Origin: a virus
Taxonomy: Duplodnaviria; Heunggongvirae; Uroviricota; Caudoviricetes
DNA: 64,000 nt
Virus record (IMG/VR): IMGVR_UViG_3300029720_000461
Reading direction: 5' to 3' (one strand)
Part shown: piece by piece, positions 8,247-27,140 of the stretch
Layout of the letters: the number at the start of each line of letters is the position of its first letter
Position numbering within the stretch: position 1 is the stretch's first letter
Program-made: the position numbers and the translations under genes
The notes under the pieces: generated by a model
The model's input: the letters and a program-made list of their open reading frames with translations, nothing else
Databases searched by the model: none
Told to the model about the DNA's origin: nothing

Positions 8247-8819
8247 ATGAGCGATATAAATGGTGTAAGTATAAAAAAGCTTACCATAAGCAGGGAAACA
8301 AATGAAGAAAAGAACAAAACTTATTTAACTGTAGCAGCAAGCATATATCTGTCAGGTAAAAAGCTTGGAAACTGGGAATATAAAAGCATATCTACAGGCG
8401 TGGAAAGCAGCAATTTTGATTTCGACTATAAGCTTTTAGAAGAAGCCGCCATGTCACATAAGGTTAAATACAGACCTTTTAAATCGCATGAATTTGAAGA
8501 TTTTGAAGAGAAAGATGTAACGGAGCTTTTAAAACATGTAGCAGACCTTACAATACAGGAAAATAAGTTTAATGAATATATCAAAGCCGGATATAAGGGT
8601 ATGTTAGATTTTACAAATGACAAGTACCATTTTTATGAGCCTTTAATGTATGGAGATGCTAAAGAATTTATGCGGCTTAATCCGGGCAAAGTAGCTCATT
8701 GTAAAAAATATTGTGGAGATAATATGCGTGTAGATACATATACGGATGTAAAACAGTTCAGCCTGCATCTAAAAGAAAAAAGCAGACAGTACAGTTTATT
8801 TGATTATATGATTATTTAA
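8247..8819 (+). CDS. hypothetical protein
   Basis: The listed ORF begins at a TTG; ATG at 8247 (MSDINGV) with AGGAG RBS. Confidence 0.5.
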   Translation: MSDINGVSIKKLTISRETNEEKNKTYLTVAASIYLSGKKLGNWEYKSISTGVESSNFDFDYKLLEEAAMSHKVKYRPFKSHEFEDFEEKDVTELLKHVADLTIQENKFNEYIKAGYKGMLDFTNDKYHFYEPLMYGDAKEFMRLNPGKVAHCKKYCGDNMRVDTYTDVKQFSLHLKEKSRQYSLFDYMII

Positions 8820-8838
8820 AAAAAGGATGTGAAGCAGT

Positions 8839-9159
8839 ATGAGTATATTTAATAAAAAGAAGGATAAAAAAACTGAAACAAATGAACTTGAGAATATACT
8901 TATTGAAATGACTTCACAGCTTAAAAGCTTAAGAGAAGATGTGGGAAAATTACAAAGCTTTGAAAAACGTATAACAGAGCTGGAAGTAAAATATACGGAG
9001 CTTAATCAGGAAATGTTAGACCGGTATGATTCATTAACAGAAAACATTAAAAGAACAGACGGTAGAAGAAGAATACATTCATCAGAACAGGAAAATGACG
9101 GACTGTTTAACAGCTTTGATTATGAGCAGATGAGAGCAAGATTAAGGAATAAGAAATAA
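8839..9159 (+). CDS. hypothetical coiled-coil protein
   Basis: 106-aa ORF, heptad-like charged sequence. Confidence 0.45.
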   Translation: MSIFNKKKDKKTETNELENILIEMTSQLKSLREDVGKLQSFEKRITELEVKYTELNQEMLDRYDSLTENIKRTDGRRRIHSSEQENDGLFNSFDYEQMRARLRNKK

Positions 9160-9190
9160 CATAAAATAATAAATAAATAACATATAAATG

Positions 9191-9219
9191 TTGACATTGA
9201 ACAAAAAGTATGTTATTAT
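9191..9219 (+). promoter_or_regulatory. sigma70-type promoter (TTGACA-17-TATTAT), copy 2, ahead of tRNA island
   Basis: Near-identical to the 6383 element: ttgacattgaacaaa...tattat. Confidence 0.45.
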
Positions 9220-9339
9220 ATAAGAGAAGTAAGAGAGTACATAATTAAAACAATATGGACAAAATGAACCGAAACTCCCTCCACCGGTTCAGCTTCCAAA
9301 TTATTTATGGATAAAGTTAATTGCCAAATTTTATCCATA

Positions 9340-9447
9340 CGGGATAAAACTTAAATTTAATTTTCTTTCAGAAATTAAATCGGTAAGTATAAACACTGGA
9401 CAAATAGTATGCTGTCCTATGTACAGGTTCGATTCCTGATATCCCGT
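9340..9447 (+). other. tRNA-like element of aberrant length
   Basis: Perfect 7-bp acceptor-like pairing cgggata/tatcccg and T arm (a)cagg-ttcgatt-cctg(a), but about 107 nt and no canonical D arm. Confidence 0.2.
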
Positions 9448-9779
9448 TTAGCTGCTTTTGCAGCAAATATTTCTTATTAAGTATTTATAAGATTATTGGA
9501 TATATAAAAAAAGGATATTGGTTGAATATATATTCAGTTGTCTTACTAACCAAATAAAAATCTGGTAAGGCACTCCTTTTTAAGTTTAGCTATAGTAGGT
9601 AAAATTTGATGTAATTCTTATGGCTAGTGTGGTGTGGTTAAAGTACCGTTCGATTCGGTTGTCAAACATCAAGAGTTAAGTTAAACCACATTAATGACTT
9701 AACTGCTATAGCTAAATGTACATTCTGACTTAAGTAATATATCAAGTATATTATTATACTTTTGACCTGCCGCCCATTT

Positions 9780-9852
9780 GGTTCTTTAGCTCAGTTGGTA
9801 GAGCATCCGGCTCATAACCGGAAAGTCTTAGGTTCGAGTCCTAGAAGAACCA
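9780..9852 (+). tRNA. tRNA-Met/fMet/Ile2 (CAT)
   Basis: Acceptor ggttctt/aagaacc; D arm tagctcagttggtagagca; anticodon arm tccgg-ctcataa-ccgga; T arm ttagg-ttcgagt-cctag. Confidence 0.8.
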
Positions 9853-10010
9853 CTGCTATATAGCTTTGGCACGAATAAGTTATATGGCACTGTTGTTTGA
9901 CTTTTTTTGTCATGTTTGAAATACAGATATTAGAAAGAACATTTTGCTGGGTGTATCTGTATTATTCTACTAGCAAATGAAAGTGTTCGGTAGAATCTTC
10001 TTTCTTTTAT

Positions 10011-10084
10011 TGGAATGTGGTCTAATTTGGTAAGGCGCTTGATTTGGGTTCAAGAAATTGTCGGTTCAAATCTGGTCATTCCAA
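10011..10084 (+). tRNA. tRNA-Pro(TGG)
   Basis: Acceptor tggaatg/cattcca (perfect); anticodon arm cttga-tttgggt-tcaag; T stem relies on G-U pairs. Confidence 0.65.
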
Positions 10085-10185
10085 CTAAAGCTTGTCACTT
10101 ATTAAATGCAAATAATACCTTTAAAAGGGAGAATAAAACTATGAGTGATGGATATGGATTGCTATTTTAATTAAGGAGACATGTT

Positions 10186-10518
10186 ATGCAAAAATTATCA
10201 AGAAATTTAGAGCAATTAAAAAATTCAGTAAATAGTTCTAAAAACCGAAATATACGATTTGTTAATGTTAAAGCTGTTAGGCAGTGTAAATATTGTGGAA
10301 GTATAATTGGTGTAGGTGATACTTGTCTTACTGTAAATAAGAAGAAAGAAGGCAGAAGATGGGTTTGTTTATCTTGTGCAAATGCTATTTTAGGATATAA
10401 GGAAACTAAAGTACAAATGAACTGTGTTCCATTTGGAGATGAAGGTGCTTACATGGCTTTATGTGATTTTGCAGCCGAGCAAGAAGCAGAATTATATGAC
10501 AGAGGTATTTTGTATTGA
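10186..10518 (+). CDS. hypothetical zinc-ribbon protein
   Basis: CKYCGS...CLSC Cys pairs; 110 aa. Confidence 0.5.
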   Translation: MQKLSRNLEQLKNSVNSSKNRNIRFVNVKAVRQCKYCGSIIGVGDTCLTVNKKKEGRRWVCLSCANAILGYKETKVQMNCVPFGDEGAYMALCDFAAEQEAELYDRGILY

Positions 10519-10523
10519 AGATT

Positions 10524-10621
10524 TGGTTAGATGACATTAGACCAGCACCAGAAGATTATGTGCAGTGTAAATATCTTCTTTGTTAATCTGTGTGTTGTGG
10601 GTTCGAGTCCCACTTAGCCAG
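10524..10621 (+). other. tRNA-like element / tRNA 3'-end fragment (possible att core or pseudogene)
   Basis: T arm gtggg-ttcgagt-cccac followed by ttagcca, which pairs with tggttag 90 nt upstream; no canonical D or anticodon arm. Confidence 0.2.
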
Positions 10622-10698
10622 CTTGTTGTTCTTTTTAAGAATGATATTATTCATTATCGTATCAGTAATGAGCGTAGTAAAAATAACAAGAAGGAGTA

Positions 10699-11001
10699 AT
10701 GATTATGAGTAATTGTGGTCTTGTTGTAAATAAAAACGATATTAACACATACTTTCAAAGTTTTATTAAACCTAGAATTTTTGACGCTGAATGGCATATA
10801 AGCTTAGCGTCAGATTTTCTTAATATAATTGATAAAGATGAATTTAAGTTAGATGATTTATGTAATCCTAAATACATAAAAGATGTTCTTAATGATAATA
10901 AAGATAATGAATACACTAAAGCTGTCCTCTATAGAAAAAATCCTGAAATGTATATATCGGGAATATTTAGATTGTATGATTTATACTTAAAGAGCAAATA
11001 A
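10699..11001 (+). CDS. hypothetical protein (paralog of 12829..13131)
   Basis: Shared motif D..FHI.LA..FL..ID.DE ... PE.YIS..F with the 12829 ORF. Confidence 0.5.
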   Translation: MIMSNCGLVVNKNDINTYFQSFIKPRIFDAEWHISLASDFLNIIDKDEFKLDDLCNPKYIKDVLNDNKDNEYTKAVLYRKNPEMYISGIFRLYDLYLKSK

Positions 11002-11092
11002 TCAAGGATGACGGTTACGGATTAGTATTTTAATAATAAAGGAGAGTGGTTTGTATGTTTAGTGATTTTAGAAATTCAATAGGAGTATAAAA

Positions 11093-11165
11093 GGATTGTA
11101 AGCTAACTCGGTAGAAGCGTCTGTCTGAAGAACAGAAGGAATTGGTTCGACACCAATACAATCCA
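11093..11165 (+). tRNA. tRNA-Phe(GAA)
   Basis: Acceptor ggattgt/acaatcc; anticodon arm tctgt-ctgaaga-acaga; T arm attgg-ttcgaca-ccaat; overlaps and invalidates the minus ORF 11030..11224. Confidence 0.8.
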
Positions 11166-11284
11166 TTAGCACTGCTGAAGTGGTTGTAAATGTAATTGTC
11201 TGAGTTCTTTACAATCAGGTGCAAAACAAAATCAGATATATCAGACTATTTCTTCAGCAATATATATCTGATTATATTAAATAA

Positions 11285-11813
11285 TGCGGGATAGAGCAGT
11301 TGGAAGCTCGCAAATGTATTATTTAAGTAAAGGAGAGGTATGTTTCATGGATTCTCCAAAAAATATGGGAAACAAAGCAGAGATAGTTGTTATATCAGAA
11401 TTTATTAAAAATGATATACCTGTTTCAATTCCTTTTGGACAAAATGAACCATATGATTTAGTAATTGATACAAAATATGGATTTAAGTCTGTTCAAGTAA
11501 AACATGGAACTTATAGAAATGGTTGCGTTGTTGTAGATATAAGACATCGAATAGGATATTCTAAAATAGAATATAGTACATATGATGGCAAAGCTGATTA
11601 TATCGCAATATGGTGCGAAGAATTAAATACTTGCTATTTATTAGATATTAAAGAATGTAATGGAAAAACCAATCTTAGATTAAGAATTGATAATCCTAAA
11701 AATAATTCTTGCATTTCAACTATAGTTTGGGCTAAAGATTATGAATTTTCTAATAAAGTTCTTTTACTAAAATAATACATTTGAGGTCACAGGTTCAAGT
11801 CCTGTTCCCGCTA
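11285..11813 (+). tRNA. interrupted tRNA gene (5' half 11285-11315, 3' half 11779-11813) split in the anticodon loop by a 463-bp ORF-bearing insertion
   Basis: 5' half has canonical geometry: acceptor tgcggga, U8A9, D arm gagc-agttggaa-gctc, G26, anticodon-stem strand caaat. 3' half: atttg, variable aggtc, T arm acagg-ttcaagt-cctgt, acceptor tcccgct. The two anticodon-stem strands extend into a perfect 12-bp helix caaatgtattat/ataatacatttg. Confidence 0.5.
11347..11775 (+). CDS. PD-(D/E)XK-like nuclease (Hjc/endonuclease-like) encoded inside the tRNA insertion
   Basis: Motifs EPYDLVID ... KSVQVKHG (PD...(D/E)XK spacing); AGGAGAGG RBS 8 nt upstream; fills almost the whole insertion. Confidence 0.45.
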   Translation: MDSPKNMGNKAEIVVISEFIKNDIPVSIPFGQNEPYDLVIDTKYGFKSVQVKHGTYRNGCVVVDIRHRIGYSKIEYSTYDGKADYIAIWCEELNTCYLLDIKECNGKTNLRLRIDNPKNNSCISTIVWAKDYEFSNKVLLLK

Positions 11814-11859
11814 CTGGTTGTTCCCCGACAGCCTATTTAGATTAAATATAAACACTCGT

Positions 11860-11933
11860 TCTGATTTAGTTTAATGGTAAAACACCTGTAGTCAAATACG
11901 GGAGATTAAGGGTTCGATTCCTTTAAGTCAGAA
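11860..11933 (+). tRNA. tRNA (paralog of tRNA-Thr at 7441) with 8-nt anticodon loop; identity uncertain
   Basis: Acceptor tctgatt/agtcaga and D arm near-identical to 7441; the best anticodon arm cctgt-agtcaaat-acggg has an 8-nt loop; one extra nt between T stem and acceptor. Confidence 0.4.
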
Positions 11934-11939
11934 TCGGTG

Positions 11940-12830
11940 ATGTCGGTATTATTATTGAGAAGTTGCTTGCAATAGTCAGTAATAGTATTGGATAAGCCGT
12001 AATAAAAAAATAACAGATACCCTAGTGAAGAAGGGCTGTCACCCTGCTAGGACATTCTTAGAGTAGTCTGTATTAAGAAGGATACCTTTTAATATAGGAT
12101 TTAAGTGACATTATAATTGATAAGTCCACTACTTATTAAGAAGATGGAGCTTGAAGGTTACGGAAAGTACCAATAGTTAGGAATGGTGTATCTATACAGT
12201 TTAATATAATGCCGCAACAGTGTGGGGAGAGCAATAGACGCTTGAGAAGAGAAGAACCTTAAGTCTTAGTCTTGTGGTGGGATTGAGCAGCTTAAGGAAT
12301 ACCAAACAATCTCCTTCGCTATGATGTTGTAGAAATACAACTATAACACACAGCAGCGGACAAGTAGCCCATAGGCGTGAAATGAGAAATTGGATGAATT
12401 AAACCAATATAAAATTCTGAATGATGGGTGAAAGTTGCAGGTAGAAAATCCTGTCATAGCATTGGGGAGAAATCCTGTGGTAAGAAGTTTAGAGGTCGCT
12501 CCTTTAAGCTCAGACTTATCATCTATGTAGCATAATAATAGCGGACTGTATAGGATAAGGCGAAAGCCTATCTGTTTTTATAATATTAGTCCTTTTGATT
12601 TAGGTTCTAGTTCCGTAAGGAGTATGGGTTCGACTCCCATAGAGGGCATTCACCTTAGCTCAATTACAATAAGTCTTAATAAGTAGCTATGATGACGATT
12701 ATACTGAAAATTTAGAATAGTTGTATACCTTTTGGGTGATTGACTATAGCGGTATCCATTTGTAGAGCAACCCCTTGTTGCGGGGTAGTATTCGGTAGAA
12801 GTCCGAGGGTGATTTATAAGGAGAAAATAT
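11940..12830 (+). ncRNA. candidate large structured non-coding RNA (GC-enriched, ORF-free block beside tRNAs)
   Basis: About 890 nt with no ORF of 60 aa or more on the gene strand, visibly higher GC than flanks, many GNRA-like and paired segments, a tRNA-like T arm plus acceptor-like 3' end (atggg-ttcgact-cccat agagggc) at 12615-12647. Confidence 0.25.
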
Positions 12831-13131
12831 GAAACTAACAAAGAAACAAATAATTGAATATATGAATAAATATATTCGAGGGTATTTATATGATGCTGAT
12901 TTTCACATATGTTTAGCAACAGAGTTTTTGAAATTGATTGACTGTGATGAAGTTGATATTGTTGAATATCAGAATATACCGTTAATTTTGCAGGTTATAT
13001 CTGAGCATAGTGAGACAGAAACCGCAAAATCTATTCTATGTCGCAAAACGCCTGAGTTGTATATTTCAGCATTGTTTGCAACATTAGAAAGACGTATCAA
13101 TGAGTATATTAATATGACGAAAACAGTATGA
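12829..13131 (+). CDS. hypothetical protein (paralog of 10699..11001)
   Basis: AAGGAGAA RBS; shared motifs with the 10699 ORF. Confidence 0.5.
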   Translation: MKLTKKQIIEYMNKYIRGYLYDADFHICLATEFLKLIDCDEVDIVEYQNIPLILQVISEHSETETAKSILCRKTPELYISALFATLERRINEYINMTKTV

Positions 13132-13178
13132 GTAAATCCTATAAAAACCCGGATATACATTAGAATTAAGTATTATTT

Positions 13179-13251
13179 GTGTCACTAGCTCAGTTGGTAG
13201 AGCATACGACTTTTAATCGTAGGGTCACGGGTTCAAATCCCGTGTGACACA
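13179..13251 (+). tRNA. tRNA-Lys(TTT)
   Basis: Acceptor gtgtcac/gtgacac; D arm gctcagttggtagagc; anticodon arm tacga-cttttaa-tcgta; T arm acggg-ttcaaat-cccgt. Confidence 0.8.
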
Positions 13252-13494
13252 CTTAATCCGGTACAGGATGCAGATTATAAAAGCAGAATTGTATTGGATA
13301 TCAGTGGAAATCTGAATTATTAAGTGCAATATGTAATGGGACAACGTATTGTATGATAGCTGTGATAATCAGTATTTGCGAACAAAGAACGATGGGAAAA
13401 ACATGTCAGCAGGTGCAGGGTAAGTGTGCATAGCTTATCACAGAGGTTTCGATACCAAAGGGCATGTTTTCGTTCATTCCCGAAAGGAGAAGAT

Positions 13495-14073
13495 ATGTAT
13501 TATTTACTGGATTATGAAAATATTGGTTCGTTAGGGCTTAAAGGGATTGACAGCCTTACAGATAAAGATATTGTGTGTATATTTTATTCAGAAAATGCTC
13601 ATACAATTGATTTGGAAGCAATAGAAATGTTTAAGAGTACAAAGGCGGCAGTCAAATACATAAAAGTAAAGAAAACCGCACCGAATTATGCAGATTTTCA
13701 GATTGTTACCCTTACAGGCTTAATTTTAGGAAAAGACAGTAAAGAAAAGGTTGCAATTATAAGCAATGATAAAGGCTATGTAGCAGTTATTGATTATCTT
13801 AAGGAAGACTGTGTAACAGGAACAAACAGAATAATTGAGCTTGCATCTACAATTGCAGATGTTAAAGGAAGTAACAGAAAAATAGAAAACAATGATTTAA
13901 AACAGAATCATAATTTCTATGATATTAATGATAAGAGAGTGAAAAATGTCATAAAAAGAAGTACAAATAAAGGTATGCTGAAATTAAACCTTATTGAAAG
14001 CTTTGGACGAATAGACGGACTTGAGCTTTTTAACAGACTTGAAAAAGATTTCAGACCTAGAAAAAGAGTGTAA
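13495..14073 (+). CDS. NYN/PIN-like domain protein (putative RNase)
   Basis: ATG at 13495 with AAAGGAGAAG RBS; N-terminal YLLDYENIG and later ISNDKGY resemble the NYN (LabA-like) acidic motifs. Confidence 0.4.
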   Translation: MYYLLDYENIGSLGLKGIDSLTDKDIVCIFYSENAHTIDLEAIEMFKSTKAAVKYIKVKKTAPNYADFQIVTLTGLILGKDSKEKVAIISNDKGYVAVIDYLKEDCVTGTNRIIELASTIADVKGSNRKIENNDLKQNHNFYDINDKRVKNVIKRSTNKGMLKLNLIESFGRIDGLELFNRLEKDFRPRKRV

Positions 14074-14316
14074 ATGAAAGACCTGATATTAAGACTGACA
14101 GATAAAGGAGTGGCATCTATGACCGGAAATAACAACCATATATTTTTAAAAGAGCTTAAAGAAAGAGAAAAGATGTCATATGCAGAATTAAGTGAATTAA
14201 CAGGCATACCAAAGGATACACTTGCTAACTGGATACTTGGCAGGCGTGAACCGCCTGACTATGTTATAAAGCTGCTAAAAGAAAAACTTACAGTATCTAA
14301 AGGAGACACGTTATGA
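14074..14316 (+). CDS. XRE-family helix-turn-helix transcriptional regulator
   Basis: MSYAELSELTGIPKDTLANW HTH; C-terminal PDYVIKLL motif shared with the 53389 regulator. Confidence 0.6.
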   Translation: MKDLILRLTDKGVASMTGNNNHIFLKELKEREKMSYAELSELTGIPKDTLANWILGRREPPDYVIKLLKEKLTVSKGDTL

Positions 14317-16570: not shown

Positions 16571-16825
16571 GAATAATTAATATATAAAATTGAAGAATAA
16601 TTATAATTCTTATGAAAGGACAGCAGATTATTTTGCTGTTCTTTTTTATACAAGTATAAATGAATTACACTTATTTAAAGCATTAGAAAAATCTGAAAGA
16701 GCAGATTTTGACAGTGCTTTATTTTTTTGCTTGTTTTTGGAAATAAGCCTTATTAAAGCGTTTATAAAAAGTGATTTTAGTATCATTAAGTAAAGAAAAT
16801 AAATGCTGATAAGAGGGCAATAGAT

Positions 16826-18712
16826 ATGGATAAACAAAAATTTACTTATAAAGTATATGATGCTAAAACAAGAAGCTTCATATATGAAGAGGATTTCACA
16901 AGTGATAATCCTTTTAAAGATATAGCAGAACGGATGAGTAAAGAAGACATATCACATGGGAGTCTTTATATCGTGGCAGAAAATGAAAACGGACAGGAAG
17001 CTGCATATACGATTGTAAAGAAAAGTGGTACAAAATTCGTTAAGTATGAACATTGTGATTTTCCTTTATCATATATAGATTTTGATATTGAGCCAAGATA
17101 TCTTACATGTATTGATGAAGTGTATAACCACTATAAGTATTATGAGATAACCTTTGATAAGGATAATTTAAGGACAAATGTAAGATATGGACGTATAGGT
17201 GCTGATAAGAATGATACATTTGGTGAGCGTGAATATGATTATCCTTTATCTATGTACTGGGTTAAATATTATGAGAAATTGTCAAAAGGCTATGAAGATA
17301 AAAGTGAACTTAAGGATTTTGATAACAGGCAGAAAAAAGGAACTGAATATGAACCTGTTAAGGATAAATACTCAAAATCACTTATTGAGTTCCTTATAAG
17401 AAAGCAGAAAGACTATGTTGAAAGTAATTATTCAACCGGTGCAGCATTTTCAATGGAAGCTGTAAAAAAATCTGAAAAGATACTGGAAGAGTTAAAGGCA
17501 TATGCTGATTCATCATTTTCAAATAAACAGTTTAAAATAAGAGAACTCTTTAAGGAGCTTGTAACAATATTGCCAAGAAGAATTGCAGATGTATCAAACT
17601 ATCTTAATTATATAACAGGTTTAAGTTCTGAAGCTTTAATGGAACATATTGAACAGGAAGAAGACCTGCTTAATAACTTTAAGGACTTATATGTTAAAAA
17701 AGAAAATGAAGCTGAAGAGAAAGCTGATAATAAAGACATACTTGAAGCTAATAATTTAACAGCCACATGTACGGATTATAAAGACATACATATGATAGAA
17801 GATAAGCTTGATAAAGATATGGCGGCAATGAAGACAGTATTAGCTGTTAAAAATAAATATACTAATGACCGTTACATAGCATGTAAAAAAGAAAAAGGCA
17901 TTGAGAACAGGGGATGTCATTTATTATGGCACGGAAGCCGTACAGAAAACTGGTGGAGTATATTTAAGAATGGTTTAACACTTAATAATAACGCAATAGT
18001 AACAGGAAAGATGTTCGGACAGGGATTATACTTTGCTCCTAAAGCTGAAAAGAGTATGAATTATACATCAAGTTTAGGAAGCTATTGGACAGGCGGTAAT
18101 GATAAAACTGGCTTTATGGCGTTATATGCAGTTGCTATGGGTAAACCTTATGAAATTGACCATGCACTTAGTTCATATTTTACTGAAAAGGATTTAAAGC
18201 ATGGCTGTCATTCAGTATGGGGAAAAGCAGGAAGACATTTAAGAAATGATGAATGCATTATTTATGATGAAAGACAGTGTGACATTAAGTTTTTGCTTGA
18301 GGTTGACAGGGAAAGAGAAAAGTATCTTACACCTGAATTTATAAAAGCTGCAAGGAATATAAAACTCAATCAGTTAAAAGCAGATAAAAACGGATTAAGA
18401 GCTTATATGAGCTTAAGAACTCCTGACAGTACTTTTAGCAGACTGAATATGGATAAAAATAATAAAGTCGAATTTATTTATACTTATGATAACACACTTA
18501 CAATCAAGACATATGATAAGGAACTTAAATCAAGTGAAAAGGAACTTAAATTTAATTCATATCAGACTGATTATCTTAAAATGATGTTTAAAGAAAATTT
18601 CACTTCTAATGACAGGGAATTTGATATGTTACTTGAAGAAAAACAGAAGGAAGTACAAAAGCCAAAGACTAAAGTAAAAAAGAAAGAAATTGAAATGTCT
18701 CTGCTTGCATAA
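16826..18712 (+). CDS. WGR-like + PARP-catalytic-domain ADP-ribosyltransferase
   Basis: N-terminal YYEITFDKDNL...VRYGRIGAD (WGR-like); catalytic H-Y-E signature: LLWHGSRTENWWSIFKNGL, GQGLYFAPKAEKSMNYTS, NDECIIYDERQCDIKFLLEV (cf. PARP1 HGS / GIYFA / NEYIVYD). Confidence 0.75.
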   Translation: MDKQKFTYKVYDAKTRSFIYEEDFTSDNPFKDIAERMSKEDISHGSLYIVAENENGQEAAYTIVKKSGTKFVKYEHCDFPLSYIDFDIEPRYLTCIDEVYNHYKYYEITFDKDNLRTNVRYGRIGADKNDTFGEREYDYPLSMYWVKYYEKLSKGYEDKSELKDFDNRQKKGTEYEPVKDKYSKSLIEFLIRKQKDYVESNYSTGAAFSMEAVKKSEKILEELKAYADSSFSNKQFKIRELFKELVTILPRRIADVSNYLNYITGLSSEALMEHIEQEEDLLNNFKDLYVKKENEAEEKADNKDILEANNLTATCTDYKDIHMIEDKLDKDMAAMKTVLAVKNKYTNDRYIACKKEKGIENRGCHLLWHGSRTENWWSIFKNGLTLNNNAIVTGKMFGQGLYFAPKAEKSMNYTSSLGSYWTGGNDKTGFMALYAVAMGKPYEIDHALSSYFTEKDLKHGCHSVWGKAGRHLRNDECIIYDERQCDIKFLLEVDREREKYLTPEFIKAARNIKLNQLKADKNGLRAYMSLRTPDSTFSRLNMDKNNKVEFIYTYDNTLTIKTYDKELKSSEKELKFNSYQTDYLKMMFKENFTSNDREFDMLLEEKQKEVQKPKTKVKKKEIEMSLLA

Positions 18713-18735: not shown

Positions 18736-18868
18736 ATGTCTTATTACATAAGCCATATCTTATTACATAAGCCATGTAAGACGTTGGTAAAGCTGTGCCA
18801 GTTTTGCTTATTAGAGTAATGCATACTTCGTAGACATTACTCTAATAAGCAAAACTTAGAATCACTAT
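18736..18868 (+). repeat. intergenic repeat block: 18-nt tandem direct repeat x2 and 16-bp inverted repeat around tacttcgtag motif
   Basis: tcttattacataagccat x2; gcttattagagtaatg / cattactctaataagc flanking catacttcgtagaca. Confidence 0.6.
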
Positions 18869-18955: not shown

Positions 18956-19711
18956 ATGAAGTATACAAATAAAGATTTTAAATGGGATTTTAGCAGTATT
19001 GACCCAGAATGTTTATACAGTGAATACAAGAAAGTAAGAATAGGTATTGAAGGAGTATATGCTAATGGAACAGGATATCTGGTTGATAAAACTGCATTTG
19101 AAAGAGAGTTATATCCAGAACTTGCAATAGCCGGATATCTGGTTAATTTTTCAAGAACTTATGGTGTCTGTGATGAATTAAGGCTTGTAAGTAAAGACAG
19201 TTTAAGAAATAATATACGTCTTAATCCTGAAGCATTATTTAATGTGTATATGCATCCAGAAGAATTTACAGGATATATGAAAGATAGTGATGTTGAAGAA
19301 ATCACTGAAATTTTAAAGAAAAACAGCTTTGTTAAAGATGTAGAAGTCACATATAAAAAGCCGGTACTTAATCTTACAAATAATGAATATGAAAAGGTCA
19401 TAAGAGATAATTTCACAAATATCTGTAAATATATAGCACATTTAAAGGAATTAAAATATTCAAATATAGATGCAGCATTTGAATTTGCAAGAAATTATGG
19501 CAATATAACATTGGAAGACCCTAAGACTGTTCTTAGCAGTGATACTGTAGAAATAAGGTATATAACAGACTTTTTGAAAAACTTAAAGAGTTTAAATGTA
19601 ACTATGGAAGATATTTTAAAAAGGTCAGAGGAAAACAGAAATCTGGCAATTTTAGATAGAAATTTACAGAAAGAATATGAAAAGAGAAGAAAAAATGAAA
19701 GGGAGAGATAG
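18956..19711 (+). CDS. hypothetical protein
   Basis: 251-aa ORF, AAGGAGAAAG RBS, ends ...KNERER. Confidence 0.5.
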   Translation: MKYTNKDFKWDFSSIDPECLYSEYKKVRIGIEGVYANGTGYLVDKTAFERELYPELAIAGYLVNFSRTYGVCDELRLVSKDSLRNNIRLNPEALFNVYMHPEEFTGYMKDSDVEEITEILKKNSFVKDVEVTYKKPVLNLTNNEYEKVIRDNFTNICKYIAHLKELKYSNIDAAFEFARNYGNITLEDPKTVLSSDTVEIRYITDFLKNLKSLNVTMEDILKRSEENRNLAILDRNLQKEYEKRRKNERER

Positions 19712-19713
19712 TT

Positions 19714-21057
19714 ATGTTAATTGATACAAAGAGATTTGATGATTTTTTAAGAAAGCATAGCTGCCACATAATAAACGAAGAGAAGACCTTGGAAGATAAG
19801 GTAACTTATCCGGATTTTACCACAAACAGATATGAGAGTGTATTTAAGCAGTTACAGACTGATATTGAAGTTGAAAAAGCTTATGATGCACTTGAGGATG
19901 TATTGTTTGCTGAAGATGAAGACGGAAGGCTTGTACTTAACAGCCCGTATGAATTTATTGCAGGCGGCAGGACATATTCATACGAAGCAGGTACACCGCA
20001 GGAAACAATCTGGGAAGACATGTTTAAGCTTCACAGCAAGGGAGCAGAGTTTACATATAGTACAGAATATGAAGATGTTAATTATGAAACAGCAGAGATA
20101 AATAACAATAAAGAAACTCCTAATATGAATATACTTGATAATCAGGATTTAAAGAAGAAATATGACAGTGGTGAAATAAAAATACCAGATAATATTATGA
20201 CAAAATATATGAATGGAAAAGCTGTATTTGTAATAGATAATGAGGAAGAAAGAGATATATTAGCTTATAATATAGCTAGATTCCCTTATCCCGGAATTAT
20301 TCCTGAATATAATTCAAATAATCCTTACTGGTTTAAAAATAATGATATAGCTTGCAGCAACTTTAAGACAATTCCATTTGAGTTTAAACTTATGCTTTAT
20401 ACAGATTTTTCAGTAATACTTGAACAAAGTAAATATGAGTCAATGTGTTTTGAGAATAAAAAAATAGCTGAATATGGTTATGAATTTAATGATGGCGACC
20501 AAATATGGAGTGATACAGCAGAAATTTATAAGACGGATAACGATAGCCTTTTTATAAAAAAATATGAAGCTGGATATACAAGTGAAGTTAAATATTCTAC
20601 AATAAGTCTCAACAACTTAATAGAAGAAATCCAACAGTATAAGGAAGATGAAGGCAAAAGTAAAAGAGGCGGTTGTTTCATTATAAAAGACCTTCCACAG
20701 GATATTATAAAACCGATACCGGATACAATGCTTGATAAATTTCTTAACAGCGAAGTTGCAATAAAAATATATAACGGAAAACAGCATGATGCGATTATGA
20801 GCCAGCTTAAGGAAACCGGCATTGATTTAAAGCTTGAAGAGTTTGGGGACTATGATAAAGACTATCCTTATTATCATATTGATAAGAATGTGAATAGCAG
20901 TAAAAGAAGTCTTAATGCCTCTATGGATATGCGTCATGTTATTGAAAGTAAAGGTATCAGATGGTGTGTTGATTTTGACAGCTTGGACAGAATCAGAAAA
21001 AACACAGAAGAGAAAGAAAAAACTGTTAAGAAAAATAAAGACCAGTACGAAAGATAA
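19714..21057 (+). CDS. hypothetical protein (QYER-tail family; C-terminal region paralogous to 21921..22614)
   Basis: Translationally coupled to the upstream gene; shared motif YDKDYPYYH/Y.DK; ends KNKDQYER. Confidence 0.5.
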   Translation: MLIDTKRFDDFLRKHSCHIINEEKTLEDKVTYPDFTTNRYESVFKQLQTDIEVEKAYDALEDVLFAEDEDGRLVLNSPYEFIAGGRTYSYEAGTPQETIWEDMFKLHSKGAEFTYSTEYEDVNYETAEINNNKETPNMNILDNQDLKKKYDSGEIKIPDNIMTKYMNGKAVFVIDNEEERDILAYNIARFPYPGIIPEYNSNNPYWFKNNDIACSNFKTIPFEFKLMLYTDFSVILEQSKYESMCFENKKIAEYGYEFNDGDQIWSDTAEIYKTDNDSLFIKKYEAGYTSEVKYSTISLNNLIEEIQQYKEDEGKSKRGGCFIIKDLPQDIIKPIPDTMLDKFLNSEVAIKIYNGKQHDAIMSQLKETGIDLKLEEFGDYDKDYPYYHIDKNVNSSKRSLNASMDMRHVIESKGIRWCVDFDSLDRIRKNTEEKEKTVKKNKDQYER

Positions 21058-21092
21058 TAAAAAATGAAATATTAAAAGGGGGGTAGAGGTTT

Positions 21093-21383
21093 ATGAATCT
21101 AAATAGGAACGAAAGGCAGGACGATACAATGGATTTTGAATGGAAAGTAGAAGACATGGCACTTATGAATGAAAAAGGCAATATATATATTTGCAATGAA
21201 AAAATTTATAAGGCTGAGAATGAATTAACAAGAGAAGAGAAGATTGAATTCCTTGACAGTATGAATGATGGGCTTACAAGCTATATACTTAATCTTGCTG
21301 ATAAACTTAAGGAAGATAAAGCAAATGGAGTTATCAAAAAAGATAAATATGGACAGATGAATACAATATCTTTCGCTGCATGA
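21093..21383 (+). CDS. hypothetical protein (N-terminal-module paralog of 23067..23828)
   Basis: NERQDDTMDFEWKVEDMALMNEKGNIYICNEKIYKAENELTREEKIEFLD close to the 23067 N-terminus. Confidence 0.45.
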   Translation: MNLNRNERQDDTMDFEWKVEDMALMNEKGNIYICNEKIYKAENELTREEKIEFLDSMNDGLTSYILNLADKLKEDKANGVIKKDKYGQMNTISFAA

Positions 21384-21488
21384 ATAAAGAAGAATGACAC
21401 AAGAAATTGTGTTGATAGTACATATGATAGGGGGGAAATTCGTTTTTCTCCATGTAGAAATATAAACAGACTTGATACAAATGTAAGC

Positions 21489-21908
21489 ATGTTTAGAAGC
21501 TCAATATATACAGATTATGTAGACGAAGCATTTCATATAAAGCTTAAAGACTTTGAGAAACAGGAAAGGCAGTATTTTAAGAGCCATGATGAATATGAAA
21601 TATTAAAGACTAAAGTATCTAAATATTCAGATAAATATGGAACTTTCGGACTTAATATCTGGAAAACAAGCAGAGGTTTATATTTCTATAAAAATGATGA
21701 TGCTAACAGTTTAGGAAGACAGATTACACTTGATGAACTTAAATTGTTTTATAGTAAATATGAAGAAATGGATAAGCTTTATGCAAAGATAACTAAAGAG
21801 CTTCCACGCATTGATTATGACCATGAATATATTGCAGAAAAGAGTGAAGAAACCCAGCCAGAAAAGAAGCCACTCCGTAAGAACAGAAATCAGTATGAAA
21901 GAGAATAG
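21489..21908 (+). CDS. hypothetical protein (C-terminal-module paralog of 23067..23828; QYER tail)
   Basis: FHIKLKDFEKQERQYF...NRNQYERE aligns with the 23067 C-terminal half. Confidence 0.45.
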   Translation: MFRSSIYTDYVDEAFHIKLKDFEKQERQYFKSHDEYEILKTKVSKYSDKYGTFGLNIWKTSRGLYFYKNDDANSLGRQITLDELKLFYSKYEEMDKLYAKITKELPRIDYDHEYIAEKSEETQPEKKPLRKNRNQYERE

Positions 21909-21920
21909 AGGTGAAAAGTA

Positions 21921-22614
21921 TATGAGAGAATTTAAAGATTTGACAGATGAAGAAATTAAATATTTTTGTAAGGATGTTTTTGGAGCTTTTAAGTTTGACA
22001 AGATAAAAAGGACTTTTAACGAACATATAGAATGTATTGATGTTAGTTTTTATGCTATAGAAAGTGAACCTAATATATCAGATAGAATTTGTTTACAGAT
22101 AAATGGTCTTAGTTCTAATGACTATAACATTGGAAAAGAAGATACATTATGGCAGCAGTTTCTATATGCAAGAGGAATCTGCTCTTTAGCAATAGATAAT
22201 CCTTATTTAGATATTGATATTAAAAAAGAAAAGAATACAGATAAATTAATACATAATGAAGATGAAAGGACATCTAAAATTATAGATGATTTTTGTAATG
22301 GATTAACTACAATCAGAATAGACTCTCAGAAAGAATTAAATAAATTTATAAAAATGGTAAACACAAAAGTTAATTGTCAGATAGAAGGAACTAATAGATA
22401 TGACAAAGACTATCCATATTATTATGTAGATAAAACCGATACATTAGATGCAGTATGTGATTTTAATTATCTTCTTGCTGGAGATTATCACTGTAATTTA
22501 AAGAATGAGAATATAACAAGATATGTAAAATTTAATACATTAAAAACAAAAGATATAAGTGCTATAAAAAATGAAAATAAGCTGGTGAAGAATAAAACCC
22601 AGTATGAAAGATAA
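21921..22614 (+). CDS. hypothetical protein (QYER-tail family)
   Basis: ATG at 21921 with GAGGTGAAAAG RBS; YDKDYPYYYVDK motif; ends NKTQYER. Confidence 0.5.
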
Positions 22615-22631
22615 CCACATTTACTGGCAGC

Positions 22632-22672
22632 TATGAAGTAACACTCATGGCTGCTTTTTTGTTTAAAGAATC
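22632..22672 (+). terminator. rho-independent terminator
   Basis: gcagctatga...tcatggctgc hairpin followed by TTTTTTG. Confidence 0.55.
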
Positions 22673-23066
22673 AGCTCATAAGGAACTCAGCCGTCTGGCT
22701 TTTATACTGCTTATGTTTACTGACCACTATAAGCTGTTTATCATTCAGAATATTTTTAGTACTTGAAATACTGAAATTAAGATACAGCCCGTGAAGGATA
22801 AAGGAAGAAAGAAAATGAAACGGATACACACCTTATAAGCCTGTTTTTTTAAAAAAAATATCAATGCCATAATAAGACCTTTTTGCAAAAATTTTAAAAC
22901 TATAAACAGATAAAATGATAATAGCTTATGAAGCAGAAAGGGATTACAAATTATGGCAAGTATAGAGGAAAAAGTAGAGAAATGTTATAAAAATAAACTT
23001 GATACACTTAATGTAAGACACTAGATAACAGACATAAAGAACAGGAATGAAAGGCAGGACAATACA

Positions 23067-23828
23067 ATGTTTGAATGGTATGTACAAGTCATGGAGCTGA
23101 TGAATGAGAAAAGCAATATCTATATTGGCAATGAAAAGATTTATAATGCTGAGAATAAATTATCAAGAGAAGAAAAGATTGAATTTCTTGATAAAATGAA
23201 TGATGATAAAATAAGTTATATGTTAAAGCTTGCTGATAAGTTTCAGGAAGACAAAGATAAGCTGTCAAAAGATGAATATGGATTCTATAAAGATGCATCA
23301 TTAAGAGCATGGTTAAAAAAGAATGATTACAGGGAAATTGTTGATACCAGTAAGCCATATATAGGAAGCATTACTCTTGTAGGCTATGATTCTTTTGGTT
23401 GTGGCAGAAGAAACATACAGAATATTAATTTACAGGCTAGAGATGATTGTCGTAAAGATTTTGTAGATGAATTATTTCACAGACAGTTAAAGGAATGTGA
23501 AAAGCAGGAAAAACAGTATTTTGCTGAATATGATGATTATAACATCTTATCAAGAAAAGTATCTAATTATATGTACAAATACAATATATCATTTGGTAAA
23601 GAAATCTGGCAAAGCGGAAACAGATTATTTTTTAAAGACCGTCAGACTGATGATGAAAGAGACCTTACAATGGATGAGCTTAAGGTACTGGAAGCTGCTT
23701 TTGAAAAAATAAAAGGTACTATGGATAAAATAATAAAGTCATTACCTGAAATGGATTATTATAATGAATATAAAGCAGATAAAAGTGATAAACAGATTAA
23801 AAGAAAGCAGCTAGAGCCTGAAAGGTAA
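23067..23828 (+). CDS. hypothetical protein (apparent fusion of the 21093 and 21489 modules)
   Basis: N-terminus matches the 21093 ORF and C-terminus matches the 21489 ORF; ends QLEPER. Confidence 0.5.
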   Translation: MFEWYVQVMELMNEKSNIYIGNEKIYNAENKLSREEKIEFLDKMNDDKISYMLKLADKFQEDKDKLSKDEYGFYKDASLRAWLKKNDYREIVDTSKPYIGSITLVGYDSFGCGRRNIQNINLQARDDCRKDFVDELFHRQLKECEKQEKQYFAEYDDYNILSRKVSNYMYKYNISFGKEIWQSGNRLFFKDRQTDDERDLTMDELKVLEAAFEKIKGTMDKIIKSLPEMDYYNEYKADKSDKQIKRKQLEPER

Positions 23829-23833
23829 CTAAT

Positions 23834-24361
23834 ATGGAAGATAATAAATTTACTGAACAACTATCAGGGCATGATACAACAATAACTGAAGATAAAATGG
23901 CACATTGTAAAGCTGTGGCAGAGCATATGAAGAAGGTTGCCAAGATACAGGGGAAAGATGACCTGACGGCTGATATATATTATGTAGTGGGGCTGCTGCA
24001 TGATATTGGATATCTAAGAGGCAGAAAAGAGCATGAAATAAATGGTGCGGTTATTTTAAAAGCAATGGGAATGAAAGATGAGTATGCACAGGCAATACTT
24101 AATCATGGAACTAATCCATATACTTTAAAGACAAATGAACAGACTGACATATTAATAGCATTGCAGGATGCTGATATGAGTGTAGATAAGTACGGTAGGG
24201 ATGCAGGCTTTAAGAAACGTCTTGAGGATATTAAATTAAGATACGGTGCTGATAGTGAAGCTTATGATACCGCCACCAAAACAGTTCAGTTCCTTAAAGA
24301 AAAATATAATGATGAACAGTCAAAGTCTATGAAAAGATATAGTAATTATGAAAGAATATAA
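23834..24361 (+). CDS. HD-domain phosphohydrolase
   Basis: H...HD motif: HCKAVAEHM ... GLLHDIGY ... NHG; ends YSNYERI. Confidence 0.6.
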   Translation: MEDNKFTEQLSGHDTTITEDKMAHCKAVAEHMKKVAKIQGKDDLTADIYYVVGLLHDIGYLRGRKEHEINGAVILKAMGMKDEYAQAILNHGTNPYTLKTNEQTDILIALQDADMSVDKYGRDAGFKKRLEDIKLRYGADSEAYDTATKTVQFLKEKYNDEQSKSMKRYSNYERI

Positions 24362-25699: not shown

Positions 25700-27140
25700 G
25701 ATTTTAGCCATGACTAAGTGAGCATTTACAAAAAATCAGAATATGCTGAAATATGTATTTAGTGATAAATACATAAAATAAATATGTTTTATTGAATCTC
25801 GATTACATCTTCTATTTTACATTTAAGTTTACAGATGTTTTCAATAGTTTCAAGTGAAATTATTATATTTAAGAAGGAAATGATATTATGGCAGAAAAGG
25901 CTTATAAATATAGAATATATCCAAATAAAAATCAGAAAGAACTTATTGCTAAAACATTTGGATGTTGCAGATTTGTGTATAACTATTATCTTGATAAACG
26001 AATAGAAATGTATGAGAATGATAAGACCACATTTACATATTACATGTGTTCCAAAGATTTGACACAATTGAAGAAAGAATATGAATGGCTTAAAGAACCA
26101 GATAAAGATTCTTTACAAAAGTGTTTAAAAGATTTAGATATGGCATATCAGAAATTTTTTAAGGAACATACTGGTTATCCGAAATTTAAGTCAAAAAAGA
26201 ATAGGTATCAGTCTTATAGAACAAGTTACACAAAAACAACTGCTGGCGGGAATATAATGTTTTTAAATAAACATATAAAACTTCCAAAGTTAGGATTAGT
26301 TAAAATAAGAGATAAACAAGTTCCACAAGGAAGAATATTAAATGCCACAATATCACAAGAACCAAATGGACACTACTACTGTTCTCTATGTTGTACAGAT
26401 GTAGAATTTAAACAGTTGCCAAAAACCAATCAGAATATTGGAATAGATTTAGGGCTAGTGAATTTTGCAATATTATCTGATGGAAAAACAATTGATAACC
26501 TTCATTTTTTTGAAAAATCAGAAAAGAAACTTGCTAAATTACAACGTGAATTATCAAGAAAAGCAATTGGTAGTAATCGTTGGAATAAGGTGAGAATCAA
26601 GGTTGCAAATTTACAGAAACATATTTCTAATCAAAGAAATGATTTCTTACAGAAACTCACAACAGAAATTATAAGAATGTATGATGTAATTGCTATTGAA
26701 GATTTAGATATCAAATCTATGAAAGAAACAGATTCTATCATTCGCAATAAACGAATTGGAGATGTATCTTGGTCTGAATTTCGTAGAATGTTAGAATATA
26801 AGTCTCAATGGTATGGAAAGAAATTATCTGTAATAGACAGATATTATCCTTCTTCACAAATTTGTCATTGTTGTGGTTATAAAGATGGTAGAAAATCAGA
26901 AGATATTCGGTCTTGGGCTTGTCCTAAATGTAATTCAAAATTAGATAGAGACATTAATGCTGCTATAAATATTTTGAATGAAGGATTAAGAGTTATAAAT
27001 GTTTAAATAGTATATAAGAACCGTAGGAACTACGGGGATAGCTCGGTGATACTTAACTCAATAGAGTTATTGACCGAGAATCATGTGACTTTAATCATGT
27101 GAGGTTCAAAAGCATACATTAAATTATGCTGAAGAAAAAA
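25700..27140 (+). mobile_element. IS200/IS605-family element carrying solo tnpB (no tnpA); boundaries approximate
   Basis: tnpB with hairpin-rich flanks; no Y1 transposase ORF adjacent. Confidence 0.4.
25888..27006 (+). CDS. tnpB: TnpB (IS200/IS605-family OrfB, RuvC-like RNA-guided nuclease)
   Basis: OrfB N-terminus YKYRIYPNKNQ; RuvC-I GIDLGL; C-terminal zinc finger CHCCGY...CPKCNSKLDRDINAAINI. Confidence 0.85.
   Translation: MAEKAYKYRIYPNKNQKELIAKTFGCCRFVYNYYLDKRIEMYENDKTTFTYYMCSKDLTQLKKEYEWLKEPDKDSLQKCLKDLDMAYQKFFKEHTGYPKFKSKKNRYQSYRTSYTKTTAGGNIMFLNKHIKLPKLGLVKIRDKQVPQGRILNATISQEPNGHYYCSLCCTDVEFKQLPKTNQNIGIDLGLVNFAILSDGKTIDNLHFFEKSEKKLAKLQRELSRKAIGSNRWNKVRIKVANLQKHISNQRNDFLQKLTTEIIRMYDVIAIEDLDIKSMKETDSIIRNKRIGDVSWSEFRRMLEYKSQWYGKKLSVIDRYYPSSQICHCCGYKDGRKSEDIRSWACPKCNSKLDRDINAAINILNEGLRVINV

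Follow-up and report, generated by a model that had tools for sequence, protein, structure and literature searches.

The window, by which we mean the whole 64,000-nucleotide stretch of DNA analysed here, carries on its + strand a gene for a PARP-family ADP-ribosyltransferase (16826..18712, stop codon included), which opens with ATG, encodes 628 aa in the list of open reading frames and is preceded by a Shine-Dalgarno-like AAGAGGG (16812..16818, + strand, read from the sequence) 8 nt before the start codon. A first-pass annotation had described this reading frame, which exists exactly as claimed. The product matches Pfam PARP (PF00644) with E = 1.7e-22 and 80.4 bits, for a family cut-off of 26.7 bits, and its best solved relatives in a phmmer search of the PDB are the human PARP1 catalytic domain (E = 7e-14) and, ranked after it, PARP2, PARP3 and tankyrase. 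PHROG 23333 matches residues 102-493 (E = 7e-29). An AlphaFold model (pLDDT 87.4, pTM 0.83) was aligned by Foldseek with the PARP1 WGR-CAT chain on a DNA double-strand break (E = 2.7e-19); alignments to PARP1 WGR-HD-ART chains extend over ~500 columns, PARP2-DNA complexes are also matched, and the nearest viral structure model is a phage 'NAD(+) ADP-ribosyltransferase' (TM 0.84). These matches lie far outside what chance would give, and by Pfam, PDB relatives, residues and fold, the product is a genuine PARP1-like ADP-ribosyltransferase. Pfam assignment and comparison of an AlphaFold model with PARP1 had been proposed beforehand as checks of this identification, and both came out in its favour, with the catalytic Glu retained and the model superposing on PARP1 WGR-CAT.

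The DNA that hosts the gene is a giant conjugative element of Gram-positive type, roughly 300 kb in size, from gut Firmicutes. A T4SS coupling protein and PrgI are encoded just upstream of the window (~10 kb upstream, on contigs of 294-328 kb), and the window itself contains TraX, a pilus ATPase (T2SSE/F-type pilus genes), an SLT hydrolase, DUF932 and PIF1, which bears out the mobile-element setting that had been suggested; a RecD2/TraA-like helicase and a PD-(D/E)XK nuclease are also encoded on the element. Scattered tRNAs, a ROOL RNA, single-strand gene orientation and an ORF of 2613 aa had pointed to a phage. A phage origin was rejected because conjugation genes were found and matches to capsid, terminase and portal were not, and because the window has no near-DNA match in INPHARED or PLSDB and the exact peptide patterns of its PARP have no close copy in IMG/VR. 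The sole gut megaplasmid to emerge from a literature search, the Bacteroidales plasmid pMMCAT, does not match the element.

The PARP gene appears to form its own transcription unit within the element's accessory region. Upstream lies a terminator-like hairpin with a U-run (16614..16645, + strand; fold -17.4 kcal/mol, z = -6.6), and 88 nt past the stop codon there is an inverted repeat (18800..18856, + strand) with 27-nt arms that are 93% complementary, a strong fold (-31.9 kcal/mol, z = -9.65) and no U-run. The gene is followed, as the first-pass annotation had noted, by uncharacterised paralogous genes, and its neighbours in the window have no anti-defence domains recognisable by Pfam, PHROG and further profile searches. 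Six genes next to the PARP gene, among them an HD-domain gene discussed below, encode a C-terminal tail composed of a basic linker, a hydrophobic residue and Glu-Arg. Such ER-tails are found on ~59% of genes around PARP homologues, some PARPs included, and are absent from the PARP neighbours on the Butyrivibrio megaplasmid pCY360. Mere overlap with ribosome-binding sites was considered as their origin and explains the tails only in part.

Domain plan and catalytic site

Five regions can be distinguished in the protein. Residues 1-90 (16826..17095, + strand) form a beta-beta-alpha-beta-beta-beta domain modelled at pLDDT 90-97, which has no Pfam, PDB or PHROG match and no recognisable fold, and whose conservation in the alignment is limited to the long-form homologues. 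The WGR domain follows at residues 91-161 (17096..17308, + strand), assigned from Pfam, invariant motifs and structural superposition. The first-pass annotation had called the N-terminus WGR-like on the basis of a segment, YYEITFDKDNL...VRYGRIGAD, which is present and contains Y121-G122-R123. The Pfam WGR score of 21.2 bits is borderline, just below the cut-off of 22 bits; close homologues pass, with 27.8 and 28.2 bits, and the structure confirms the assignment, the WGR of the AlphaFold model superposing in Foldseek on those of PARP1 and PARP2. Three motifs, N101-x-x-K104-x-Y106 (NxxKxY), Y121-G122-R123-I-G125 (YGRIG) and K151-x-x-K154-G155-Y156 (KxxKGY), are invariant across 36 sequences, and correspond in position to the three WGR regions tied to DNA-dependent activity (PMC5966428).

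The helical domain (residues ~175-334; 17348..17827, + strand) is probably, by AlphaFold and Foldseek, the equivalent of the regulatory, autoinhibitory helical domain of PARPs. Its helices in the model span residues 181-201, 210-227, 234-248, 256-264, 268-289 and 318-334, and the Foldseek matches of this predicted structure with PARP1 and PARP2 extend across the bundle 181-334; PARP_reg was not detected by Pfam sequence search. The ART catalytic domain (residues 335-494; 17828..18307, + strand) holds H369, Y402, K409, S410, Y413 and E476, and is followed by a C-terminal domain without recognisable fold (residues 495-628; 18308..18709, + strand), which consists of a beta-sheet, two long helices and a Lys-rich tail.

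The catalytic H-Y-E signature reported previously is real, resting on the Pfam match, the PARP1 match in the PDB and an invariant triad. The peptides that had been quoted for it were all found, namely LLWHGSRTENWWSIFKNGL (with H369), GQGLYFAPKAEKSMNYTS (with Y402, K409, S410 and Y413) and NDECIIYDERQCDIKFLLEV (with E476), and the codons of the triad lie on the + strand at 17930-17932 (H369), 18029-18031 (Y402) and 18251-18253 (E476). In the phmmer alignment to the PDB these residues fall on the PARP1 triad, the counterparts being H862, Y896 and E988. K409, S410 and Y413, within GQGLYFAPKAEKSMNY as aligned with GKGIYFADMVSKSANY, are the equivalents of PARP1 K903/S904/Y907 at the nicotinamide site. 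H369, Y402, E476, K409 and Y413 are invariant in an alignment of 36 homologues of 29-46% identity.

From the intact Glu the first-pass annotation had gone on to conclude that chain elongation is possible, which overstates the case. E476 is intact and necessary, but it is not sufficient. Relative to PARP1, the window PARP lacks ~28 residues just ahead of its catalytic Glu, after the last aligned strand: the two aligned blocks are separated by 5 residues here and by 33 in PARP1. Furthermore, the position of PARP1 Y986, in the acceptor site for chain elongation and branching, is occupied by N474, which is invariant in the family. The examples of PARP3 and PARP4 demonstrate that an H-Y-E triad is no guarantee of polymer synthesis.

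Relatives, contexts and the question of an eraser

Prokaryotic and phage PARPs had been described as rare, a view that is overstated in the light of a survey of the family, which comprises at least 250 protein clusters, with relatives at 159 loci in species-representative genomes and at 264 loci on IMG/VR viral contigs. Bacterial and phage PARPs have, moreover, already been reviewed (PMC5966428, PMC8120803, PMC9503650), and pCY360 carries a PARP that has been described before. Public assemblies contain 199 and 174 members of the near-identical protein clusters. The literature already describes the domain plan as well as PARPs borne by plasmids and phages, and the bare annotation is ordinary.

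The window PARP shares with human PARP1, PARP2 and PARP3 the H-Y-E triad, the K903/S904/Y907 equivalents, the D-loop region and the WGR fold, and its predicted helical bundle resembles their helical domain. Unlike these human enzymes, it has neither zinc fingers nor a BRCT domain nor a basic N-tail, its WGR signature begins with Tyr rather than Trp, and it carries two extra domains. The bacterial enzymes HaPARP and CdPARP, which have the WGR-helical-ART plan that is also predicted here, perform DNA-dependent PAR synthesis and are reversed by PARGs from the same genomes (PMC5966428, PMC8120803), while the 'Clade 1' PARPs of Clostridiales have no Pfam-detectable PARP_reg and yet a helical domain could be modelled (PMC5966428). 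Bacterial PARPs share the Tyr as first WGR residue with the window PARP, which differs from them by its added domains (1-90 and 495-628) and by the lack of a PARG or macrodomain gene in the window. BpPARP, like the window PARP, is part of a co-directional run of hypothetical genes; its 361-kb plasmid was typed as MPF_T. The two proteins are only 27% identical over 68% of the length. The phage PARPs or PARTs (Cellulophaga phages phi17:2 and phi4:1, Klebsiella phages, jumbo phages) have the same core and belong to PHROG 23333, a Cellulophaga phage PARP aligning by tblastn at 26% identity over residues 88-491. These are short forms of ~400 aa, mostly preceded by a macrodomain, whereas the window PARP is a long form without macrodomain on a conjugative element.

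Several long-form homologues have informative surroundings. At one locus (L002) there are the polyvalent-protein domains ArdC-N, LPD1 and LPD11 together with NT5C, NADAR, RNase T and a second PARP; another homologue has an AcrVA2-like protein directly downstream, and also YodL; a further one sits in the same type of co-directional array of unannotated genes, with matches to NT5C, DUF5688 and DUF6273 only. One short-form homologue (P0089) has a PemK toxin and further mobile-element genes in its vicinity. Polyvalent proteins, as reportedly described by Iyer et al. in 2017 (PMC5512222), are very large polypeptides with many effector domains and LPD domains. The window PARP was rejected as a polyvalent protein, being 628 aa long with one enzymatic domain; at L002, LPD1, LPD11, ArdC-N and NT5C are found in proteins that flank the PARP homologue.

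The true eraser in this family is a TARG1-like macrodomain. A gene for a TARG1/OARD1-like macrodomain stands directly upstream of the PARP gene on the same strand in 73 of 80 cases among phage (viral) loci and in 16 of 80 among loci from genomes, and in one case (P0068) the macrodomain is fused to the PARP. This partner matches human TARG1 with E = 1e-25, DarG macrodomains being weak PDB matches. DarT-DarG resembles the relatives of the window PARP in pairing an ADP-ribose writer with a TARG1-type macrodomain eraser that is encoded first; DarT itself differs in belonging to a distinct ART family without WGR or helical domain, whose target is thymidine in single-stranded DNA, and the window differs from DarT-DarG in having no macrodomain. 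No eraser for the PARP is encoded in the window: a macrodomain HMM found nothing in six frames of the window or of three related contigs (L001, L002 and L003), and Pfam found no Macro, PARG, ARH or NADAR domain among the called window ORFs of at least 55 aa. An HMM search of the window did not find the ~100-aa downstream partner of Bacteroidota type. The long-form lineage has dropped the TARG1-type eraser while gaining two domains.

The first-pass annotation had looked for the eraser elsewhere, in an HD hydrolase encoded at 23834-24361, co-directional with the PARP gene and 5 kb apart. The gene exists, and its HD domain is intact (Pfam HD, 36 bits). The supposition was a single operon-like unit in which ADP-ribose attached by the PARP is removed by the HD hydrolase, or in which the latter breaks down a related nucleotide signal. 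Both genes are retained in the near-identical contig L001, and the HD protein has the '...YER' class of tail that is also seen on five genes between it and the PARP, but the remaining evidence makes the pairing highly improbable. By its profile match (TIGR00277, 35 bits) the HD protein is a generic HDIG phosphohydrolase, with weak similarities to HD domains of YqeK/NadD type and to Cas3 HD; known ADP-ribose eraser folds are macrodomain, PARG, ARH and NADAR, and HD is not among them (PMC9503650). Besides the strong hairpin after the PARP gene, a predicted intrinsic terminator (22626-22655) separates the two genes, and a further one is predicted 3' of the HD gene. No HD gene is found near the PARP homologues at L002, L003, L093 and L089, and the conserved partner of the family is the macrodomain. 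The HDIG type, the terminator and the absence near homologues speak against the HD protein as eraser of this PARP.

Proposed mechanism and role on the element

From the observed domains, catalytic residues, fold and genomic setting, and by homology, we infer a DNA-break-sensing enzyme that would be activated by DNA. With modest confidence, we propose an active NAD+-dependent enzyme of PARP1-3 type (bacterial/phage PARP, PART clade), the most likely role of which would be in conflict or establishment of the element. By homology with PARP1/2, HaPARP and CdPARP, the WGR domain would bind a DNA discontinuity, that is, a nick, a double-strand end or a 5'-phosphate, and this binding would unlock the helical domain. 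NAD+ may then enter a donor site of H369, Y402, S410 and Y413, and E476 would catalyse the transfer of ADP-ribose onto the enzyme itself, nearby proteins or DNA termini. PARP2 and PARP3 have been reported to be able to modify the termini of DNA breaks with ADP-ribose (PMC5861426, PMC5725667). In this manner the enzyme might sense ends of element or host DNA during transfer or nuclease attack, and there tag proteins or DNA ends or block them. Counter-defence and host takeover had been proposed earlier as its function, and from context a role in these or in establishment is plausible. The missing eraser counts against this explanation, given that 73 of 80 phage relatives keep one, and so does the lack of recognisable anti-defence domains among the neighbours in the window.

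A different role for DNA sensing would be defence of the abortive-infection type, in which the PARP senses incoming phage DNA ends and responds by consuming NAD+ or by ADP-ribosylating targets in phage or host, and so protects the host population of the element, like NAD+-depleting defences or DarTG. Defence genes are frequently carried by mobile elements, and depleting NAD+ is a common strategy of defence (PMC9503650); the macrodomain-then-PARP pairs of the relatives resemble the antitoxin-toxin pair DarG-DarT, with DarG as a weak PDB match of the partner, and there is the PemK toxin beside P0089. We nevertheless regard this as unlikely. No model of PADLOC-DB v2 matches the window PARP, and its neighbours yield only the weak Cas3-HD similarity of the HD protein, so that a known anti-phage defence system is rejected; most relatives lie in large phage genomes themselves (the 264 IMG/VR loci), the long-form contexts bear domains of anti-restriction and anti-CRISPR type (ArdC-N, AcrVA2-like) rather than defence genes, and the window copy is without its macrodomain 'antitoxin'.

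Maintenance of the element, with a PARP1-like damage signal that brings the host's repair machinery to breaks in a large replicon and is reversed by a host macrodomain or PARG, corresponds to the canonical function of WGR-HD-ART PARPs. It accords with the DNA-activated HaPARP and CdPARP, reversed by PARGs of their own genomes, and with the RecD2-like and PIF1 helicases and PD-(D/E)XK nuclease of the element. However, no repair genes consistently adjoin the PARP relatives and no PAR readers were identified, and the patchy distribution of the family, concentrated in phages and mobile elements, argues for conflict rather than housekeeping, which leaves repair a low probability. Lower still is the chance that the protein is a DNA-independent effector that mono-ADP-ribosylates a specific host protein, its WGR being a vestige or a targeting domain. 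The shortened stretch before the catalytic Glu and the replacement of PARP1 Y986 by N474 would suit such an enzyme, the extra N- and C-terminal domains could bind a target, and many phage and plasmid ARTs are mono-transferases against host proteins. Yet the three WGR motifs of DNA-dependent activity are invariant and a helical domain is retained in the predicted structure, from which we argue that DNA-gated regulation has probably been kept.

Returning to conflict and establishment, we can extend this proposal, as an improbable elaboration, to an arsenal of small effectors that giant conjugative elements of gut Firmicutes would express or deliver on cell entry, with ADP-ribosylation at DNA ends as an anti-defence activity. 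There, the WGR domain would detect the strand as it enters or the cuts that host nucleases make, and the PARP would ADP-ribosylate host nucleases or DNA termini; the ER-tail could serve as a shared label for recognition, such as a signal marking T4SS substrates. If true, this would be an enzymatic mechanism of anti-defence or establishment that is new to conjugation. We know of no demonstrated biological role for any bacterial, plasmid or phage PARP, and to our knowledge in-vitro activity is known for two bacterial PARPs only. A PARP1-like DNA-break sensor on a widespread conjugative element would be a tractable system for ADP-ribosylation in the conflict between element and host, and the loss of the eraser together with the gain of two domains in the long-form lineage offers a tangible starting point for understanding the control of the enzyme.

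Architecture of the PARP and its structural relatives

The open reading frame at 16826-18712 (+) encodes a protein of 628 amino acids from an ATG start, eight bases 5' of which the sequence reads AAGAGGG on the same strand, and it contains all of the peptide strings quoted in the first-pass annotation. The PARP catalytic domain that was assigned there to the C-terminal half is borne out by PF00644 (E = 1.7e-22; 80.4 bits against a Pfam cut-off of 26.7 bits), by human PARP1 as best solved sequence relative (E = 7e-14, followed by PARP2, PARP3 and tankyrases) and by a match of residues 102-493 to PHROG 23333 (E = 7e-29), the family of Cellulophaga phage 'poly(ADP-ribose) polymerase'. The proposed WGR domain scores 21.2 bits, slightly below its cut-off of 22 bits, and passes it in homologues at 32-46% identity (27.8 and 28.2 bits).

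When 36 diverse homologues at 29-46% identity are aligned, H369, G370, S371, Y402, K409, Y413 and E476 are invariant in the catalytic domain, as are N101, K104, Y106, G122, R123, G125, K151, K154, G155 and Y156 in the WGR domain, where Y121 is nearly so. The conserved WGR residues group into three motifs, coinciding with three regions tied to the DNA-dependent activity of bacterial PARPs by García-Saura et al. (PMC5966428); the first 'W' position is usually Tyr in bacterial enzymes (PMC5966428). Built from this alignment, an AlphaFold2 model reached a mean pLDDT of 87.4 and a pTM of 0.83, a confident prediction, and the suggested comparison with PARP1 was positive: the top Foldseek match in the PDB is 7s6m_D (E = 2.7e-19, approximately 510 aligned columns), a PARP1 WGR-helical-ART chain on a DNA double-strand break, with PARP2-DNA and PARP2-nucleosome complexes ranking after the PARP1 chains. 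Pfam sequence search of the protein did not find the helical regulatory domain; it appears to be present structurally in the model, as judged from the Foldseek alignment to PARP1 and PARP2 chains. In 'Clade 1' of Clostridiales and Cytophagales the helical domain is likewise structural and missed by sequence (PMC5966428).

The catalytic glutamate is intact, as first reported, but its presence had also been taken to imply chain elongation, and this does not follow. Polymer versus single units is not settled by the glutamate, because the stretch from the last aligned strand to the catalytic-Glu block spans 33 residues in PARP1 and 5 here, and PARP1 Y986 corresponds to N474, invariant among the 36 homologues. 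The PARP annotation is correct and robust, and that this is a WGR-helical-ART PARP enzyme we regard as close to certain.

Distribution of the family and nature of the host element

Prokaryotic and phage PARPs had been described as rare, a view now outdated because a scan of species-representative genomes yields 159 relatives and a scan of IMG/VR 264 on viral contigs, mostly of 90-290 kb. At least 250 protein clusters in a large protein database are related at E 1e-5 or better, and near-identical protein clusters contain 199 and 174 member sequences. Three forms occur: a long form of approximately 650 aa, to which our protein belongs, one of approximately 560 aa with the C-domain only, and a core-only form of approximately 400 aa. 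The closest genome relatives are in gut Clostridia MAGs, then in Cytophagales and Saprospiraceae, and the closest named precedent is BpPARP, from the 361-kb Butyrivibrio proteoclasticus megaplasmid pCY360. One homologue-bearing contig (L002) carries two PARPs approximately 4.5 kb apart, a 559-aa WGR-PARP (3771-5450) and a 657-aa long form (10001-11974), separated by genes for an ArdC-N and an LPD1 protein.

The host is a giant conjugative element of Gram-positive type, and the mobile setting first proposed for the gene stands. All large ORFs in the window lie on one strand, GC content is approximately 30%, and no phage structural genes were seen. The window encodes TraX, T2SSE-type ATPase and T2SSF-type platform proteins, an SLT transglycosylase, a DUF932 protein, PIF1 and RecD2/TraA-like helicases, an EAL protein, guanylate kinase, flotillin, TnpB and an InlB B-repeat protein of 2613 aa; identical proteins on contigs of 294-328 kb place PrgI and a 938-aa coupling protein of the TraG/VirD4 type approximately 10 kb upstream of its start. 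Sample names, such as XIEH16, suggest a human gut origin. TraX, the T2SSE- and T2SSF-type proteins and the 2613-aa Listeria-Bacteroides (InlB B) repeat protein cluster at 36524-53267, likely the element's pilus or adhesin apparatus.

Seven tRNA genes are dispersed among small ORFs at 7250-13252; two of these tRNAs (7250-7319 and 11860-11933) ARAGORN reports as 'tRNA-???' with two-base anticodon calls, and a full-length ROOL RNA (RF03087, 331 bits) lies at 11997-12589. An IS200/IS605-type TnpB (OrfB_IS605 plus Cas12f-like TNB domain; 25888-27006) is followed by short direct repeats (27175-27378), and within 14-38 kb only this segment has nucleotide matches in PLSDB or INPHARED. At 20711-22570 the window is approximately 1.5 kb longer than a 98%-identical contig (L001, at 13987-14303); this additional sequence is made up of paralogous copies, with 21093-21383 and 21489-21908 resembling 23067-23828, and 21811-22614 resembling the C-terminus of 19714-21057.

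Predicted transcription boundaries and eraser partners

The HD protein (23834-24361) had been proposed as an eraser paired with the PARP, a reading that finds no support here. Its 175 aa carry a generic HDIG domain (TIGR00277, 35 bits), other similarities being weak (YqeK/NadD-associated HD domains and Cas3 HD); a predicted intrinsic terminator (22626-22655) separates the two genes, with a second predicted 3' of the HD gene; and no HD gene occurs in the four homologue neighbourhoods inspected (L002, L003, L093 and L089). The PARP gene is itself flanked by hairpins, a terminator-like one with a U-run on its 5' side (16614-16645; -17.4 kcal/mol, z = -6.6) and one with 27-nt arms and no U-run on its 3' side (18800-18856; -31.9 kcal/mol, z = -9.65). 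In the 244-nt 3' spacer the latter, very stable hairpin is preceded by the 17-mer CTTATTACATAAGCCAT, present twice, two bases apart (18740-18775); together these may be an operator or RNA element.

Clustering of ORFs neighbouring the homologues revealed a different partner. Directly upstream of the PARP in Firmicute-type loci lies a protein of approximately 145 aa, a TARG1/OARD1-type macrodomain (human TARG1, E = 1e-25) with weaker matches to DarG macrodomains. Its HMM has matches in 73 of 80 large-phage loci (L096-L174) and in 16 of 80 genome loci (L007-L047). In the phage loci the gene almost always lies on the PARP strand and abuts the PARP start; with short-form WGR-PARPs it makes a tight two-gene module. 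In the homologue P0068 a macrodomain forms a C-terminal fusion to the PARP, and in L002 a NADAR gene lies second downstream of the long form, after an RNase_T gene. From these associations, macrodomain or NADAR proteins are the genuine erasers of the family. The window has no macrodomain HMM match in six frames, and in none of its called ORFs of at least 55 aa does Pfam detect a Macro, PARG, ARH or NADAR domain. In 26 Bacteroidota loci (L030-L084; Cytophagales, Saprospiraceae) the gene immediately 3' of the PARP encodes a conserved protein of approximately 100 aa that has no Pfam match and is distinct from the macrodomain.

Gene neighbourhoods and possible role

Long-form homologues (approximately 40-44% identity) lie in long co-directional arrays of small uncharacterised genes. 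In L002 these include ArdC-N, LPD1 and LPD11 polyvalent-protein domains, NT5C, RNase T, NADAR, GGDEF and the second PARP; in another array an AcrVA2-like protein is immediately downstream of the PARP and YodL also occurs; comparable arrays surround the homologue P0020. Such markers are typical of mobile-element conflict or establishment regions (PMC5512222, PMC11541004). Cyclic-di-GMP enzymes recur beside long-form PARPs, as an EAL phosphodiesterase here (27765-29600) and GGDEF proteins in L002 (13780-15525) and L003 (8470-9543).

The six genes directly downstream of the PARP (18956-24361) end in NERER, QYER, QYERE, QYER, EPER and NYERI; pCY360 lacks such endings. Around long-form homologues (L002, L003, L093, L095, L006 and L121), 44 of 75 ORFs have [E/D]-R at the C-terminus, with or without one further residue (Asp, Glu or Gly after Glu-Arg), against an internal background of 1.7% (P = 6e-58). 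These tails span unrelated protein families, including some PARPs; 41 of 66 come after a linker, basic or acidic, plus one hydrophobic or aromatic residue, and the tails are retained where the next gene is at least 40 nt away (22/64) and ahead of a terminator. Their Arg codons are skewed to AGR (P = 3e-7), which fits Shine-Dalgarno-like pressure as a partial component; there seems to be a protein-level signal as well.

The PARP might act in abortive defence, and for its locus PADLOC returned no match. It might be a repair or maintenance factor; or it might be a DNA-independent mono-ART effector, to be weighed with the shortened stretch before the glutamate and with the WGR motifs shared with DNA-dependent enzymes. 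The markers beside long-form homologues, with the negative PADLOC result, therefore favour a role in conflict or establishment; on the analysis as a whole a conflict role is tentative, at a little under even odds, and the enzyme identity and the conflict or establishment role taken as one statement are marginally favoured. The protein is a variant architecture within a known class, and its context is informative. In the favoured reading DNA ends would activate the ADP-ribosyltransferase, which would serve the conflict or establishment of the element.
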